Positions 4,297 to 13,309 of a stretch of DNA of 35,081 nt are shown here, piece by piece. How positions within the stretch are numbered: the first letter of the stretch is position 1; every line of letters begins with the position of its first letter. Made by a program: the position numbers and the translations under genes. Source of the stretch: Clostridia bacterium (GTDB taxonomy: Bacteria; Bacillota; Clostridia; Oscillospirales; CAG-272); NCBI GenBank assembly GCA_017416885.1, contig JAFQAM010000280.1, positions 1-35,081 of the forward strand, read 5' to 3'. Below the pieces are notes generated by a model, which was not told where the DNA came from, ran no database searches, and saw only the letters and a program-made list of their open reading frames with translations.

Positions 4297-5718
4297 CTAA
4301 TCAACTATTTTAAATTCAAACCAGAATATAGAGCCCTTGTGAATTTCACTTGACACACCGAAGCGTGAGCCGTGAAGCAAAAGAACATTCTTTACAATGG
4401 AAAGACCAAGACCCGTGCCAATAACGGCGCGCTTGTGAATCTTGTCAACCTTGTAATATCTATCCCAGATTAACGGAAGGTCCTCTTCCTTGATTCCCTC
4501 GCCGCTATCCTTAACGGAAATTCTTACGACATCGTTTTCAACCGTTTGCGTAACTATAACTGTTTTGTCGATACCTGTGTAGTTAATTGCGTTATTTATC
4601 AGATTATAAATAACCTGTAAAAGCCTGATTTCATCTGCATTGATATAAACCTCGCGGTCATAATCGAATACAATGTTAAAATCGTTATGCTCCTTGAAGC
4701 GAGCATATCTTTCAACAGTATTTGATACCGCCCTTGTTAAATTCATTCTTTGAATATTCATTGTCTGCGTACCTGCTTGTAGCTTGGACACATTAAGCAG
4801 GTCATTTACAAGAGAGGTAAGACGGGCAGATTCATCAATAATAACCTGTAAATTTTCAGTAGTAATTTCATCGGGAATATCGCGCATAACCTCTGCATAA
4901 CCTGAAATCATAGTAAGAGGTGTGCGTAAATCGTGGGAAATATTTGCAATAAGCTCCTTTTGCATTGAGTCAAGTCTGCCAAGCTCCTTAGTGGCAATTG
5001 TCAGAGTTTTTGCAAGCTCCCTTGTTTCAATAGGTCCCTCAACATCAAATTCAACATCATAATTCGCTCTTGCCAGCTTTTTTGCATTGTTATTCATTTT
5101 TACAATTGGGGAGGATAGCCTTTTCGCCAAAATAAACGAAATAACAACCGCAACAATCAAGAATAAAATTGAAATCAAAATCAGCAAGGTACGAATTGCG
5201 CTGATAGTGGATTGCATTGGCTCAATTGAAGCATTTAATACAAGTAAATATACAACGCCCTTTGTATCGGTAACAACTCTTGCGAAAACTAAAAAGTCCT
5301 CGCCGTTTTCAGAGGAGCTAATCTCGGAAAACTTGCCCTCATTACTGTCATTTGCGCCGCTTAGCCAATGAAAATAAAGCGTATCATCGGTAACTCCGTG
5401 AATAATACAGCCGTTTGACTTACATTCGGGAGTGTAAATGATAGATGCGTCCTTGCAGTTATATACCTGCATGCATAAATCGTATTCGTCAATAATTTGC
5501 TCAACGGTATTGCCAATATTTTCAGAGCCGATAGCATCAACAATTAAGTTTGATGCAATCTCAATATCGTTTTCCTTTGTTGCTCTGTAAACCTCATTGA
5601 AGAATATAGCCTCAAGCGACCATAAGAATGCGATCATAACAACGGTGAGAGACAAAAAAGAAATGAAAATATTAGTTGTAATTGAAAAATGTATGCGTTT
5701 TTTCTTCATATTTTTCAC
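4297..5718 (-). CDS. Sensor histidine kinase (two TM segments, extracytoplasmic loop, HAMP, HisKA, HATPase_c)
   Basis: H-box ISHDLRTPL, N-box NLINNAINYT, G-box GTGLGLSIV. The start overlaps the RR stop (GTG 5718, or ATG 5709). Confidence 0.9.
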   Translation of the reverse strand: MKNMKKKRIHFSITTNIFISFLSLTVVMIAFLWSLEAIFFNEVYRATKENDIEIASNLIVDAIGSENIGNTVEQIIDEYDLCMQVYNCKDASIIYTPECKSNGCIIHGVTDDTLYFHWLSGANDSNEGKFSEISSSENGEDFLVFARVVTDTKGVVYLLVLNASIEPMQSTISAIRTLLILISILFLIVAVVISFILAKRLSSPIVKMNNNAKKLARANYDVEFDVEGPIETRELAKTLTIATKELGRLDSMQKELIANISHDLRTPLTMISGYAEVMRDIPDEITTENLQVIIDESARLTSLVNDLLNVSKLQAGTQTMNIQRMNLTRAVSNTVERYARFKEHNDFNIVFDYDREVYINADEIRLLQVIYNLINNAINYTGIDKTVIVTQTVENDVVRISVKDSGEGIKEEDLPLIWDRYYKVDKIHKRAVIGTGLGLSIVKNVLLLHGSRFGVSSEIHKGSIFWFEFKIVD

Positions 5719-6419
5719 TGCAGCTTCTTTTCCTCAAAGCGATAGCCCATGCCGCGAATGGTAACTACAAAATCGCTATATCGACCGAGGCTTTTTCTTA
5801 AAATTTTAATATGAGTATCAAGAGTTCTGTCATCACCGAAAAAGTCATAGCCCCATACATCCTGTAAAAGCTTATCTCTTGAAAGAGCAATATTCTTATT
5901 TCTGAGTAAGTAGAAGAATAATTCATACTCCTTAGGTGACATATCAATTCTCACACCGTCAACATAAACAATTCTTGCAGTAATATCGGCAACAAGACCG
6001 CCGTCAGCCATAGTGACGATTTCGTTTTTCTTTTCCTCAACCTTTTCAGTTGCTGTTCTTTTAAGTATAGCGTTAATTCTTAAAAGCAGCTCCTTAGGCG
6101 AAAACGGTTTAACAACATAATCATCAATACCAATCTCAAAGCCGTTTATCTTGTCATACTCCTCGCCACGCGCGGAAAGCATAATGATAGGAATATCAGA
6201 GGTTTTTCTGATTTCGCGGCAAGCGGAGAAACCGTCAAGCTCAGGCATCATAATATCCATAACGATTAAATCAAAATCGTTATGTCTGAACTTGGTAACC
6301 GCATCCAAGCCGTCGCAAGCCTCAACAACCTCATAACCGTCAAATTCGGCATATTTACGAATGAGCTTTCTGATCATTTCCTCATCGTCAACAATTAATA
6401 ATTTGTGCATTTTCATCAC
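5715..6419 (-). CDS. OmpR-family response regulator
   Basis: Receiver domain (LLIVDDEE, LIVMDIMMPELDG, LSARG) plus a winged helix ending MGYRF; SD GAGGTGATG upstream. Confidence 0.9.
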   Translation of the reverse strand: MMKMHKLLIVDDEEMIRKLIRKYAEFDGYEVVEACDGLDAVTKFRHNDFDLIVMDIMMPELDGFSACREIRKTSDIPIIMLSARGEEYDKINGFEIGIDDYVVKPFSPKELLLRINAILKRTATEKVEEKKNEIVTMADGGLVADITARIVYVDGVRIDMSPKEYELFFYLLRNKNIALSRDKLLQDVWGYDFFGDDRTLDTHIKILRKSLGRYSDFVVTIRGMGYRFEEKKLQ

Positions 6420-6472: not shown

Positions 6473-6549
6473 CGACCGTCAGCCGTCAGCCGTCAGCAGT
6501 CAGCAGTCAGCCGTCAGCAGTCAGCAGTCAGCAGTCAGCCGTCAGCGAG
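6473..6549. repeat. Tandem heptamer array, about 10 units of CAGCCGT / CAGCAGT
   Basis: Direct reading: cagccgt x2, cagcagt x2, cagccgt, cagcagt x3, cagccgt, cagcgag, preceded by the degenerate unit gaccgt. Confidence 0.95.
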
Positions 6550-6600: not shown

Positions 6601-6645
6601 CCATAGTGTAGCCATCTAACAACTGACAGCTAATGGCTAACGGCT
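6601..6645. repeat. Degenerate inverted copy of the YAGCNGT heptamer array
   Basis: Reverse complement reads aagccgt tagccat tagctgt cagttgt tagatgg. Partly complementary to 6473-6549. Confidence 0.6.
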
Positions 6646-6677
6646 TTCATTTTTACGAATGCTTCGTAAAAATGAAA
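6645..6677. repeat. Perfect 15-bp inverted repeat with a 3-nt loop
   Basis: tttcatttttacgaa-tgc-ttcgtaaaaatgaaa. Confidence 0.9.
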
Positions 6678-6713
6678 ATACAGCACTTAATTTTTTAGAT
6701 TTCGTGCTGTATT
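6678..6713 (-). terminator. Terminator of the htrA-like gene
   Basis: aatacagcac / gtgctgtatt stem; on the minus strand it is followed by TTTTCATTTTT. Confidence 0.55.
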
Positions 6714-6743: not shown

Positions 6744-7955
6744 TTATTTAGAAGGTGTGTACTCAAAAACCTTTGCTTCAACAGTTATGGTCTGATATTC
6801 ACGACCTACGCTGCGGGCAACCTTAAACTTAATGGTTGAACCGATTTCGCTTTTTCTTACGATAGCAATGATTTCTGATGCAGAGCTTACAGGCTCACCG
6901 TTTACACTGATGATTTTGTCGCCTGTTCTGAACACCTTTTCGTTATAGCCCTTTTCAAGAGAATAAATTCTCACAGAGCCGTCAATATATTCTGCAAATA
7001 CAGCGCCGATTGTTGGCTTATCCTTTACATATCCGTAATTGATAATATCGCTGTACATCTTGCAAGCATCCTTAGCAGGGATTGCAAAGCCAAGACCTTC
7101 AATGCCTGTGCCTGAGGATTTTGCATTAACAATGCCAACAAGTCTGCCACTCATATCGAAAAGTCCGCCGCCTGAGTTGCCGGGGTTTATAGCAGCATTT
7201 GTTTGCATTAAATTCATTATATTACCGTCAATTTCTATTTCACGGTCAAGGGCGCTTATTACACCTGTTGTTACGCTTCCGCCAAGCTCGCCAAGAGGAT
7301 TACCGATAGCGATTACGCTATCTCCCACTCTTAAATCATCATCGCCTGTAAATGAAGCGCAGGAAAGCTCCTTGCTTTTTTCTTCTATTCTTATAATAGC
7401 AACATCGCCTTCAACATCAAAGCCTACGCAGTAAGCGTTATATTGTGTGCCGTCTCTTAAAATTACAGTAATCTTAGAGGCGATACTTCCTGCGCTCTGA
7501 CCTTGAATTACATGAGCATTTGTGATTATATTATATCCGGTTTTTTCACCGTTTAACTGATATTCACCAACGATTACGCCACTTCCCGCGCCGCTTCTAA
7601 CAGCCTGATAGTAGGAGTGAATAACATATTCTGTCTGTATTTCAACTACTGAGTCCTGAACAAGCTCAACAATATCAGCAAGCTTTGCTGTCTCATTTTC
7701 GTTTACAACGATTTGGTTAGCAACAGGAGCCTTATAAATAGTGTTTGTATATACATCGGTTTTTATCACACGGTTTTTAGAAACCAAAAATCCGCCTAAA
7801 ATACCGAACAGCAGAGAAAATACTGCGCAAGCAATGCAAACCGTGATTAATAAGCGAGAGCTTATTCTGTTTTCACTTGAATCGTCTTCTAAATCTATGT
7901 TAGGTCCATAACCGTTAGAGTTTGAAAAATCATCATTATAAATGTAATTTGACAT
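6744..7955 (-). CDS. htrA: HtrA/DegP-family serine protease, N-terminal TM anchor, trypsin-like domain plus PDZ domain
   Basis: Catalytic triad contexts ITNAHVI, GDVAIIRI and GNSGGGLF. C-terminal PDZ-like region (GDKIISVNGEPV). Confidence 0.9.
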   Translation of the reverse strand: MSNYIYNDDFSNSNGYGPNIDLEDDSSENRISSRLLITVCIACAVFSLLFGILGGFLVSKNRVIKTDVYTNTIYKAPVANQIVVNENETAKLADIVELVQDSVVEIQTEYVIHSYYQAVRSGAGSGVIVGEYQLNGEKTGYNIITNAHVIQGQSAGSIASKITVILRDGTQYNAYCVGFDVEGDVAIIRIEEKSKELSCASFTGDDDLRVGDSVIAIGNPLGELGGSVTTGVISALDREIEIDGNIMNLMQTNAAINPGNSGGGLFDMSGRLVGIVNAKSSGTGIEGLGFAIPAKDACKMYSDIINYGYVKDKPTIGAVFAEYIDGSVRIYSLEKGYNEKVFRTGDKIISVNGEPVSSASEIIAIVRKSEIGSTIKFKVARSVGREYQTITVEAKVFEYTPSK

Positions 7956-10804: not shown

Positions 10805-12040
10805 ATGAAAGAATTACTTTGTCCGGCGGGCAATTTTGAAAAAATGAAATCAGCCATACTCTATGGCGCAGATGCGGTATATTTAGCGTCTGATATGTTT
10901 GGTATGCGCGCGGCAGCCGATAACTTTACATTAGATGAGTTAGAGGAAGCAACCGAGTATGCCCACAAAAGAAATGTAAAAATCTATGTAACTGTAAACA
11001 CAATGCCCCATACCTGTGAGTATGAAAGACTGAAAAAATATCTGATAAGACTTGATGAAATCGGCGTGGATGCTTTGATTATTTCCGACCTTGGCGTATT
11101 TACCTTAGCAAGAGAAATAATACCTAATATGGAAATCCACATTTCCACTCAGGCAAGCACCGTTTCTGCATATACCGCCAACACCTGGCATAAAATGGGA
11201 GCAAAGAGAGTTGTTTTGGCAAGAGAGCTTTCCCTTGATGAAATTAACGAAATCCGCAAAAATACCGATAAATCCTTAGAGCTTGAATGCTTTATTCACG
11301 GCTCAATGTGTATTTCATTCAGCGGCAGATGCTTGCTATCCAATTACTACACAGGCAGAGACGCAAACCGCGGAGCCTGTGCGCAGCCTTGCAGATGGAA
11401 TTATGTAAACGCAAGCCCGATTGAATTTTGCGAGGAAAAAAGGCTTGACCATAAGCTTGCATTAGAGGAATATAAGGAAGGCTCCTTTGTAATGTCCTCA
11501 AAGGATATGTGTATGATAGAGCATATTCCGGATCTTATGGAAAGCGGTATTGACAGCTTTAAAATTGAGGGCAGAATGAAGAGCGCATACTATACGGCTA
11601 TTTGCGCCAATACCTACAAAATGGCTATGAATGAATACTTAAAAAACCCCGAGGAGTATCGCTATAATCCGCTTTGGCTACGGGAGCTTGAAAGCGTTTC
11701 CCACCGTGAATATGCGACAGGCTTCTATTACGATAATCCTATGGATAATCCTCAAATTGTGACACAGGGTGGCTATTTACGCGAAAAAGCATACCTATGC
11801 GTCGCAACAGGCGAAAAAATAGGCGAGCATTATATGTTCGTTCAAAGAAACAAATTAACAGAGGGCGAAAGAGTTGAGCTTATAACTCCAGGTAAATGCG
11901 GAGTCGCATTTGAAGCGCTTGACCTTCGCAACGAAAAAGGTGAAAAAATCGAAAGCGCCCCGCATCCATCTATGAAATTTATGATGAAGGTCCCCTTTGA
12001 GGTAAAAGAGGGCGACATTCTTCGTTCAAACGATAGATAG
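10805..12040 (+). CDS. Peptidase U32 family protein
   Basis: N-terminus MKELLCPAGNFEKMKSAILYGADAVYL and the ...HISTQ...EGR... pattern typical of U32 (PrtC/YhbU-like) proteins. Confidence 0.8.
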   Translation: MKELLCPAGNFEKMKSAILYGADAVYLASDMFGMRAAADNFTLDELEEATEYAHKRNVKIYVTVNTMPHTCEYERLKKYLIRLDEIGVDALIISDLGVFTLAREIIPNMEIHISTQASTVSAYTANTWHKMGAKRVVLARELSLDEINEIRKNTDKSLELECFIHGSMCISFSGRCLLSNYYTGRDANRGACAQPCRWNYVNASPIEFCEEKRLDHKLALEEYKEGSFVMSSKDMCMIEHIPDLMESGIDSFKIEGRMKSAYYTAICANTYKMAMNEYLKNPEEYRYNPLWLRELESVSHREYATGFYYDNPMDNPQIVTQGGYLREKAYLCVATGEKIGEHYMFVQRNKLTEGERVELITPGKCGVAFEALDLRNEKGEKIESAPHPSMKFMMKVPFEVKEGDILRSNDR

Positions 12041-12163
12041 TGGTTAGCTCACATTTTCGCAAAGCGAAAATATATCGAAACTGCATAGCAGTTATATCGA
12101 ATTTCACGCAGTGAAATATATCGAATTTGCGAAGCAAATATATCGAGTGCGAAGCACATATAA

Positions 12164-12226
12164 GTGGTCAGTGGTTAGTGGTTAGTGGTTAGTGGTTAGT
12201 GGTTAGTGGTTAGTGGTCAGTGGTTA
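12164..12226. repeat. Tandem heptamer array, 9 units of GTGGT(T/C)A
   Basis: gtggtca, gtggtta x6, gtggtca, gtggtta, read directly. Confidence 0.95.
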
Positions 12227-12376
12227 GCCACTCCCTGTGAGCGAAGCGAGCCCCTATCCCCTACACCACTTGCTACACAAGTCGATATATTTGCTTCGCA
12301 AATTCGATATAGCCTTCGGCTTCGATATAATTCGCCAAGGCGAATTTCGATATATTTTGCTTCGCAAAATGTGAGA

Positions 12377-12426
12377 CATCCCTACATCCTACATCCTACA
12401 TCCTACATCCTACATCCTACATCCTA
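12377..12426. repeat. Tandem heptamer array, 7 units of CATCCTA (first unit is 8 nt)
   Basis: catcccta followed by catccta x6, then a degenerate tail taccctatcccctataccc to 12445. Confidence 0.95.
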
Positions 12427-12463
12427 TACCCTATCCCCTATACCCTGCGACGAAAGGAGCAAA

Positions 12464-13309
12464 ATGGAAACATTTATTGAAATTTTAAAAGCCATTTTTA
12501 TCGGTATTGTTCAAGGCATAACAGAATGGCTTCCCGTGTCAAGCACAGGACATATGATTATTGCCAATGAATTTGTCAGCCTTAAAGTAAGCGACGGCTG
12601 TTGGAGCTTATTTGAGGTAATAACTCAGCTTGGCTCAATTTTAGCGGTTATAATTTTATTCTTTAACAAGCTAAACCCCTTTGCAAAATCTAAAACCGAA
12701 ACGGAAAAAAAGCAAACCTGGACACTGTGGTTCAAGGTTATAGTTGCAGTTTTACCTGCTGCAATCATCGGCATTATTTTTGAAGACTTCCTTGACAAAA
12801 CATTTTATAAATTTGTTCCTGTTGCAATTGCATTAATAGTTTACGGTATTCTTTTCATAATTATTGAAAGAATAAATAAAAACAGAAAAATGAAATATGA
12901 AACCGTTTACGATATTGACTATTCCACCGCGCTTAAAATCGGTTGCTTTCAGGTTTTATCCTTAATCCCGGGCACATCCCGTTCAGGCTCTACAATTTTA
13001 GGCGCATCAACAATTAAGGTGTCAAGAACAGCGGCGGCGGAATTTTCATTCTTTTTGGCTATCCCTGTAATGCTTGGAGCATCTCTTTTAAAGGTTGTAA
13101 AATTTGTGCTTGACGGCTTAACACTGAATTCCACCGAAATAATTGTGCTTACAGTAGGCACTCTTACCGCATTTTTAGTATCACTTTTTGTAATTAAATT
13201 TTTAATGTCATTTGTTAAAAAGCATAGCTTTGAAAGCTTCGGCTGGTACCGTATAATATTAGGTATCATTTTGGTGATATACTATATTATTAAAATTAGC
13301 ATACACTAA
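12464..13309 (+). CDS. uppP: Undecaprenyl-diphosphate phosphatase
   Basis: METFIEILKAIFIGIVQGITEWLPVSSTGH... and PGTSRSGSTI motifs. SD AAAGGAG lies 5-11 nt before ATG 12464. The track ORF start (12206) is read-through of the repeats. Confidence 0.9.
   Translation: METFIEILKAIFIGIVQGITEWLPVSSTGHMIIANEFVSLKVSDGCWSLFEVITQLGSILAVIILFFNKLNPFAKSKTETEKKQTWTLWFKVIVAVLPAAIIGIIFEDFLDKTFYKFVPVAIALIVYGILFIIIERINKNRKMKYETVYDIDYSTALKIGCFQVLSLIPGTSRSGSTILGASTIKVSRTAAAEFSFFLAIPVMLGASLLKVVKFVLDGLTLNSTEIIVLTVGTLTAFLVSLFVIKFLMSFVKKHSFESFGWYRIILGIILVIYYIIKISIH

Follow-up and report, generated by a model that had tools for sequence, protein, structure and literature searches.

Two inverted box-hairpin repeats within heptanucleotide arrays upstream of uppP in a Clostridia bacterium, and the apparently undescribed repeat family to which they belong

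A stretch of 35,081 nt from a Clostridia bacterium of the Oscillospirales (contig JAFQAM010000280.1, positions 1 to 35,081; hereafter the window) was analyzed, with the focus on the 423-nt spacer that separates the open reading frame (ORF) of a U32 peptidase (10805–12040) from uppP (12464–13309). The initial annotation of this DNA had described in the spacer four plus four ATATCGA/TCGATAT boxes, mini-hairpins and two heptamer arrays, all of which were confirmed. Its view of these parts as a single palindromic unit of ~400 bp did not hold, since the evidence resolves the spacer into four layers, namely two arm insertions at separate sites and, older than these, two heptamer arrays.

The features of the spacer are given on the plus strand unless stated otherwise. 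Heptamer array A begins right behind the peptidase ORF with a first unit, TGGTTAG (12041–12047), which the inserted left arm (12048–12163) severs from the remaining units. The left arm starts with CTCAC, continues with five perfect hairpins (12053–12071, 12079–12093, 12101–12117, 12125–12139 and 12147–12157) alternating with four TATATCGA boxes (12071–12078, 12093–12100, 12117–12124 and 12139–12146), and closes with ATATAA. The main part of array A (GTGGTYA, ~9 units, 12164–12227) was delimited by Tandem Repeats Finder (TRF) at 12163–12227 with 9.3 copies, and an orthologous array is found in the relative L175. The junction between arrays A and B (12228–12250) consists of CCACTCCC, comparable to CACCTCTTC in L175, and of an extra 15-nt piece, TGTGAGCGAAGCGAG, which contains a mini-hairpin GAGC-GAA-GCGAG at 12239–12250 with tandem G.A pairs resembling those of a hairpin of the repeat family described below, H3. 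Array B starts at 12251–12267 (CCCCTAT CCCCTAC ACC) and is separated from its remainder by the right arm (12268–12375, minus strand), which shows the left-arm architecture on the minus strand, with five hairpins (12268–12282, 12289–12303, 12311–12321, 12329–12346 and 12354–12370), four TCGATATA boxes (12282–12289, 12304–12311, 12322–12329 and 12347–12354) and a terminal GTGAG. The main part of array B (12376–12446; TRF, 7.1 copies of ACATCCT) holds ~7 ACATCCT units that pass into CCCTATA-type units, has its G-rich strand on the minus strand and is orthologous to the (CCTACAY)6 array of L175. The last segment before uppP (12447–12463), with the Shine-Dalgarno site GCGACGAAAGGAGCAAA, is conserved and is the sole part of the spacer common to most relatives with spacers of ≥50 nt. 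Two inverted arms had been recognized previously, and they stand, though the limits given here delimit them better.

The eight ATATCGA/TCGATAT boxes of the spacer are located at 12072–12146 (plus strand, four) and 12282–12353 (minus strand, four), with a spacing of ~18–25 nt within the arms. In the whole window the motif occurs 15 times against 5.3 expected, a count that was not attained in any of 100 shuffles. In each of the ten segments that lie between the boxes or outside them in the two arms, there is a perfect stem of 4–8 bp. A perfect 30-nt inverted repeat was observed between 12117–12146 and 12282–12311, and 10-nt terminal inverted repeats, CTCACATTTT (12048–12057) and AAAATGTGAG (12366–12375), delimit the composite in the window. 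The motif GCGAAGC/GCTTCGC occurs at exactly the five positions (12129, 12149, 12241, 12293 and 12359) reported earlier; its window-wide expectation is 4.6 per 35 kb and therefore ~0.05 per 400 nt. Such C-G-closed GNA triloops are, according to Hirao and colleagues, reportedly exceptionally stable DNA hairpins. The C(TTCG)G hairpin at 12312–12320 is likewise present, as gccttcggc. The left and right arms are 78% identical and have nothing in common in three of the five hairpins, so that the arms represent two members of a family rather than a fresh duplication.

The spacer folds much better than its shuffles, with z = -10.2 under DNA parameters and z = -9.9 under RNA parameters (-153 kcal/mol). 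In the predicted fold the boxes of opposite arms would pair with each other, with the small hairpins as side branches, while inspection of arrays A and B revealed no mutual base-pairing between them, whether G-U pairs were allowed or not. A scan of the spacer found no terminator, and promoter matches were at chance level only. A mechanical ORF at 12206–13309 (367 aa, GTG start) is spurious and results merely from the arrays having no stop codon in the frame of uppP, and gene callers could take it for a long uppP. A public contig encoding the same UppP protein (L001) has a spacer identical to that of the window.

Orthologous U32-uppP junctions were obtained through uppP homologues, and they differ widely in what lies between the two genes. 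The same-species strain L122 (uppP 98% identical at the nucleotide level) has a spacer of 50 nt with about four GCTRRCN heptamers and no arms. The spacer of L175 (85%) is 120 nt long and reads TAG(TGGTCAG)3(CGGTCAG)4-cacctcttc-(CCTACAY)6, again with no arms. In L176, L178, L113 and L192 (80–84%), spacers of 96–111 nt carry (GCTGACN)-type units, degenerate in L192, and a GC-rich hairpin is additionally present in L176 and L192; those of L172, L114, L116 and L118 (76–83%), with 11, 24, 7 and 4 nt, respectively, are essentially empty. When both arms are removed, the window spacer aligns with that of L175, the left arm following TGGTTAG, the initial unit of array A, and the right arm following the initial 17 nt of array B. 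Since arrays A and B lie side by side without arms in L175, the string at 12251–12267 is the head of array B and not, as the earlier statement that both arrays end in related strings would have it, the end of array A. The window copy is a recent, strain-specific insertion whose arms lie inside pre-existing heptamer arrays. With respect to the G-rich strand of the array that hosts it, the left arm has the same polarity as the right arm, which, from these two cases only, hints at insertion in a strand-specific manner. The insertion also altered the final codons of the peptidase (12029–12040), with the protein ending in ...RSNDR* in the window and in ...RSCN* in L122.

A second and independent case of presence and absence was found on a viral or prophage contig, where ~290 nt with an eight-box element (L180, 3712–4000, equal to L128, 5020–5310) directly follow a gene for a small HUH Rep (PF23343). 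The insert also holds three GC-rich hairpins, one of them GTCAGC-TTC-GCTGAC, and it is missing from an 86%-identical relative (L182, 2099–2130) and from nine further rep homologues. These ten homologous loci without the element indicate that its position beside rep is an incidental insertion. A rolling-circle Rep as the mobilizing enzyme was considered and rejected on this ground, and so was the element as a Rep origin, for which there was moreover one Rep-adjacent case (L128/L166) only.

A genome scan with one genome per species and a pattern of three TATATCGA boxes spaced 8–20 nt apart detected at least 108 loci, of which at least 63 carry at least one arm with distinct inter-box hairpins. 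The record titles seen for the family are those of Acutalibacteraceae, Oscillospiraceae, Faecousia, Ruminococcus/Ruminococcaceae, and Eubacteriales or "Clostridia" metagenome-assembled genomes (MAGs). Among the matches listed, the arms occur as 28 divergent doublets, six convergent doublets, 32 singlets and two tandem multimers, the latter with two copies in L060 and three in L109. The divergent doublet, the commonest doublet form among these matches with ~175 nt, is laid out as four TCGATAT(A/G) boxes, a conserved center TTCGATATGATATAAATCC and four ATATCGA boxes, with a hairpin in nearly every inter-box gap, and the inverted arm pair of the window is one of the six convergent doublets. Individually, the box-hairpin-box modules of the window are 94–100% identical to modules from other genomes. 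Several copies occur per contig or MAG, and dispersed copies within one genome are 88–99% identical (L012, 0.93; L010, 0.99; L027/L034, 0.88), while the median identity between genomes is 74%.

Copies of the family lie mostly at the 3′ ends of genes. Among 26 orientable doublets, 13 lie between co-directional genes in one orientation and five in the other, seven lie between convergent genes and one between divergent genes. About eight of the 13 belong to one orthologous rlmD locus, and once this locus is removed there is no orientation preference relative to genes, only avoidance of promoter regions.

Genome matches in Bacillus, Mesobacillus, Sporolactobacillus, Bacteroidetes and others were discarded as unrelated tandem or coding repeats, and 44 of the 46 matches in a scan of viral contigs with the box pattern were ordinary tandem repeats without hairpins, L128 and L166 being the only family members. 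BLASTN of the whole spacer gave no match in plasmid and phage collections, and a metagenome scan with the window-end pattern CTCACATTTT-N7-13-AAAATATATCGAA gave three chance matches only, in AT-rich unrelated DNA. Rfam had no match at gathering score in the window and none on the element at E ≤ 1 in eight family loci. A full-text literature search for the box sequence returned primers and unrelated sequences only. The family is apparently undescribed, and it is widespread in Oscillospirales of the gut and rumen.

The pairing of the variable segments was then compared across the family. A perfect terminal stem of ≥4 bp is present in 70% of 220 inter-box segments, among which 179 sequences are distinct; the corresponding share of shuffled segments is 5%. 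When 23 doublets were aligned, standard pairs were formed by 96.9% of the cells, and sliding the partners by 1–3 columns lowers the pairing to 21–43%. Double changes are seen in 16 pairs, and the double-change cells number 89 against 29 ± 5 in shuffles (0/500 reaching the observed value), with only five one-sided changes in 964 cells. The same is visible between paralogues of a single MAG (L027/L034), which differ by compensatory double changes such as gctccctgcgggagc versus gctctctgcgagagc. The earlier observation that pairing is kept while sequence is not, made on the two arms of the window, is therefore extended to family-wide covariation. The boxes are invariant in the alignments while the segments between them vary; the long-range pairs between boxes never vary, and so they are uninformative either way.

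The stems consist of 943 Watson-Crick pairs, seven G-T pairs and one A-C pair, and G-U pairs make up ~0.5%. Functional RNA helices normally tolerate G-U pairs. The loops are of 3–4 nt and each is about as common as its own complement (GAA eight, TTC seven). The near-absence of G-U pairs and the symmetry of the loops suggest that pairing is maintained at the level of DNA or on both strands. In hairpin H3, tandem G.A pairs are kept on one strand only.

These data reveal a family of repeats that is present in multiple copies, is constrained in structure and shows gain and loss of copies among close relatives. We consider, with a probability of roughly 0.7, that the spacer is a set of layered repeats, in which the arms belong to a family of non-autonomous mobile DNA resembling REPINs, doublets of repetitive extragenic palindromic (REP) sequences, or bacterial interspersed mosaic elements (BIMEs), lodged within hypervariable heptamer microsatellites. 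The first layer would be the heptanucleotide arrays (TGGTYAG)n and (CCTACAT)n, of a kind abundant and fast-changing in this lineage, presumably through replication slippage. The second would be the two arms of ~110 nt, one inserted into each array in opposite orientations. In each arm, five short and perfect hairpins of variable sequence take turns with four boxes, TATATCGA(A), that are constant. The family may spread as DNA, with the hairpins extruded in single-stranded DNA and the constant linkers presented to a trans-acting enzyme, and the likeliest route would be analogous to the recognition of REPINs by REP-associated tyrosine transposases (RAYTs) (PMC3116915). Perfect stems might be kept through selection on hairpin formation or by mismatch correction inside the hairpin. 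If uppP is affected at all, this would be a by-product of the insertion, which parts genes that otherwise lie 4–24 nt apart and puts a self-pairing structure of ~330 nt into the presumed U32-uppP transcript; the spacer is probably not a dedicated regulator of uppP. Among the four roles offered by the initial annotation, that of an element like a miniature inverted-repeat transposable element (MITE) fared best, with copies in many genomes and contexts and absence from L122.

Several points weigh against this layered, mobile-repeat interpretation. No transposase or other mobilizing gene was found among the neighbors scanned in 8-kb stretches around the matches, and copies were counted in these stretches rather than in complete genomes. 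No target-site duplication was evident at either window junction or at the L180 junction, and comparison of the junctions with the empty sites of L175, L122 and L182 gave at most 2 nt of ambiguous microhomology. A near-identical donor copy for either window arm was not found in the sequences examined. The locus of rlmD, element and intervening-sequence protein gene keeps the element across ~8 species, which would fit a locally useful function too. Two related arms ~100 nt apart in opposite orientations are also unusual for independent events, and suggest a target preference or a coupled event.

The gene at that locus bears on another explanation, namely that the boxes are iterated sites for a sequence-specific DNA- or RNA-binding protein, with PF05635 as the candidate, and that element and protein form a functional or mobile module. 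Genes of PF05635, annotated as "23S rRNA intervening-sequence protein", start 16–37 nt from the same end of the element at nine loci (L010, 4132–4488; L026, 725–1078; L033, 4121–4486; also L029, L036, L062, L071, L079 and L094), behind three different upstream genes (rlmD-like, carB-like and HD-domain). The protein is a small four-helix bundle and belongs to the protein family of Avd, the accessory protein of diversity-generating retroelements. When three PF05635 proteins were used as tblastn queries against the sequence collected by then, nine of ten matches started beside an element. In L026 the gene is bracketed by a full eight-box element upstream and, just downstream, a lone half-element (634–701) of four boxes with hairpins ending in GAGATTATAA. 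The invariance of the boxes amid variable segments, and their spacing, would also suit a binding array. However, the nine cases are orthologues and therefore amount to only two to three independent contexts, most elements have no PF05635 gene nearby, the window being among those without one, and a simple binding array leaves the covarying hairpins unexplained, so that we regard this explanation as quite improbable.

REP elements are thought to stabilize mRNA in Escherichia coli. The element could be a structured RNA with a cis effect on the flanking genes, whether it insulates the cistrons from each other, is a site of processing by an RNase or stabilizes the 3′ end of the upstream mRNA. The very stable RNA fold, the covarying stems, the location mostly just past stop codons with divergent promoter regions avoided, the retention downstream of rlmD in ~8 species and the one-stranded G.A pairs of H3 would all agree with such a role. 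Nevertheless, the almost complete lack of G-U pairing is unusual for a functional RNA helix, no orientation preference relative to transcription is seen outside the rlmD locus, L122, a strain of the same species, lacks the element at this place, Rfam gave no match, and the spacer showed neither a terminator nor a promoter signal above chance. The dedicated structured RNA or insulator proposed earlier is thus disfavored, and a cis-acting RNA appears rather unlikely. In a further explanation the heptamer arrays are a contingency (phase-variation) switch whose copy number tunes uppP expression, the arms being incidental. Array unit and copy number do differ between close relatives at this spacer, and there are other bacteria in which simple-sequence repeats located in 5′ regions are known to control gene expression (PMC12721329, PMC4679880). 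Still, the arrays lie between the stop codon of one gene and the conserved Shine-Dalgarno site of the next, two genes that relatives keep 4–24 nt apart, the scan gave no credible promoter whose spacing they could alter, similar arrays occur beside unrelated genes at ~11 per 100 kb, and no within-sample length heterogeneity was seen in the assemblies examined, L001 being identical to the window; a switch of this kind is very improbable.

A more far-reaching version of the mobile-repeat interpretation can be imagined, which we regard as unlikely. The box-hairpin arrays would be the cis partner of an unrecognized system whose protein, with the Avd-like "IVS protein" encoded beside a subset of copies or a hairpin-specific HUH enzyme as candidate, reads the invariant TATATCGAA linkers between extruded mini-hairpins; element and protein would jointly form a new class of repeat mobilized through single-stranded DNA, with templated renewal of the hairpins (hence perfect stems and no G-T intermediates) and the heptamer arrays as landing pads or by-products.

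The heptamer arrays were also analyzed in their own right. Period 7 is the dominant class of tandem repeat in the family loci, with 33 of ~62 arrays or 11 per 100 kb, and such arrays are typically 22–50 nt long. Favored heptamers recur at several loci per genome, such as ATTCTGC/ATTTTGC in L055 and AATTCGR in L092. In the lineage of the window the favored unit is GTCAGCN/GCTGACN, found in the U32-uppP spacers of the relatives and in a second window array, (GTCAGCM) × 9.9 (6478–6546, plus strand, TRF), whose unit is the reverse complement of the relatives' GCTGACN units. This second array lies between a response-regulator gene (5715–6419, minus strand) and an htrA-like gene (6744–7955, minus strand), and ~75 nt beyond it are inverted units, ctgacag ctaatgg ctaacgg (~6622–6642), and a perfect 33-nt hairpin (6648–6680). 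At uppP, L175 (1378–1430) and the window carry (GGTCAGY)n, and L176 (1440–1475), L178, L122 and L113 have its reverse complement, (GCTGACN)n, at this place; these opposite strands reflect either an inversion or re-seeding from the same favored hexamer. A literature search gave no description of heptamer repeats for Clostridia; heptamers are an over-represented long microsatellite in cyanobacteria, Beggiatoaceae and Xanthomonas, and they vary between close relatives there (PMC4679880, PMC4692102).

Beyond the window, heptamer arrays seldom adjoin box-hairpin elements. A general preference of the arms for heptamer arrays is not apparent, as only L096 has an array ≤100 nt from an element, and the co-location in the window probably reflects a spacer that was almost entirely array. 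The arrays often adjoin GC-rich mini-hairpins such as GGAAGC-NNN-GCTTCC, and inverted pairs of arrays are frequent. A recurrent composite of Oscillospirales consists of a ~32-nt heptamer array (~4.6 units) and a GC-rich mini-hairpin (GGAAGC-NNN-GCTTCC or GCGAAGC), fills whole intergenic regions and often contains inverted array pairs, as AATTCGR versus AATTCCG in L092; it was seen at L092 311–520 and 6566–6844, L055 3034–3234, L096 150–215 and L097 1989–2362, and looks like a separate small repeat family.

Two further observations concern repeats upstream of genes. At the end of array B (12427–12446), the minus strand reads GGGTATAGGGGATAGGGTATAGG, with three G3-4 tracts and one G2 tract, a possible G-quadruplex shortly before the Shine-Dalgarno site of uppP; in Xanthomonas and Nostoc, heptamer arrays rich in G have been shown to form structures of this kind (PMC4692102). 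Elsewhere in the window (23516–23585), 2.1 copies of a unit of 34 nt, AAACACTTTCATGTTTGCTTTTATGATATAATAA, directly precede an ORF (23603–24076), and since the unit contains a TATAAT-like motif, a promoter region may have been duplicated here.

Most of what is known of the Oscillospirales (Acutalibacteraceae, Ruminococcaceae and relatives), which abound in gut and rumen, comes from MAGs, and their repeat content is essentially uncharted. Structured repeats and heptamer arrays break assemblies and inflate intergenic regions, and the repeat family together with the hypervariable arrays could be used as strain-typing markers. Large self-pairing inserts in operons such as U32-uppP may affect the mRNA. 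The near-absence of G-T pairs raises the testable question of how bacterial palindromes stay perfect, and the family offers a new model, outside Proteobacteria, for the spread of REPIN-like DNA.

Among known systems, the pneumococcal BOX and RUP (repeat unit of pneumococcus) sequences and the Correia elements are modular MITE-like repeats of Firmicutes and Neisseria. The family resembles them in being non-coding and multi-copy, with a variable number of modules and terminal inverted repeats, in its intergenic insertion and, presumably, in co-transcription with neighboring genes. To our knowledge there is no sequence similarity to them, and the regular alternation of boxes and mini-hairpins is without counterpart. 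As in MITEs, terminal inverted repeats are present (CTCACATTTT/AAAATGTGAG, with the arms as inverted copies), whereas neither a target-site duplication nor a related or parent insertion sequence was found. The regular alternation of constant and variable segments, with a period of ~22 nt, recalls clustered regularly interspaced short palindromic repeats (CRISPR), but the constant unit is 8–9 nt and non-palindromic against direct repeats of ~23–50 nt, the variable segments are perfect palindromes of 10–18 nt instead of foreign-derived spacers, the arms occur in inverted pairs and no cas genes are nearby; the repeats are not a CRISPR array. They also show no constant association with Rep, as a rolling-circle origin would, and, in place of the model match, G-U tolerance and fixed gene orientation of an Rfam family, have mixed orientations.

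For the arrays, the closest likeness is to intergenic heptanucleotide repeats such as the short tandemly repeated repetitive (STRR) sequences of cyanobacteria, TAACTGA of Beggiatoaceae (PMC4679880) and GGGAATC/GGGGAYT of Xanthomonas and Nostoc (PMC4692102). In both, intergenic period-7 arrays of ~4–10 units recur with one unit at many loci per genome, vary in length and sequence between close relatives and frequently form inverted pairs. The arrays described here differ in their host, Oscillospirales of the Bacillota, in their units (GTGGTTA, CATCCTA, GTCAGCN, ATTCTGC, AATTCGG and others), and in that an array is the landing site of a structured repeat of ~110 nt. Small hairpin elements of cyanobacteria also insert at precise short sequences, as SDR5 does into HIP1 in work cited in PMC4390886.

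The arms themselves are most similar to REP, REPIN and BIME sequences, REPINs being REP doublets that form hairpins (Bertels & Rainey 2011, PMC3116915). Both are multi-copy, short extragenic palindromic units found as singlets, tandem clusters and, commonly, inverted doublets that can adopt either a single long hairpin or a "clover" of several small hairpins, and both show compensatory stem changes, similar copies within a genome, a mosaic modular build and presence or absence that varies between strains. Unlike in REPINs, no RAYT gene was seen among the neighbors in the 8-kb stretches, and the host clade is Clostridia here and Proteobacteria there. The GTAG/CGTC tag of REPs (PMC3733652) is absent from the family alignments, the hairpins being flanked instead by TATATCGA(A)/(T)TCGATATA boxes. 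REPs keep the palindrome constant, whereas here the constant part is the unpaired 8–9-nt linker TATATCGAA, present four times per arm, so that the logic of REPs is reversed. The heptamer arrays of the window are a new occurrence of a known kind of repeat, and the arms belong to the already known kind of REP/REPIN/BIME intergenic mobile repeats, with the combination of constant linkers and variable, perfect hairpins being what is new here.

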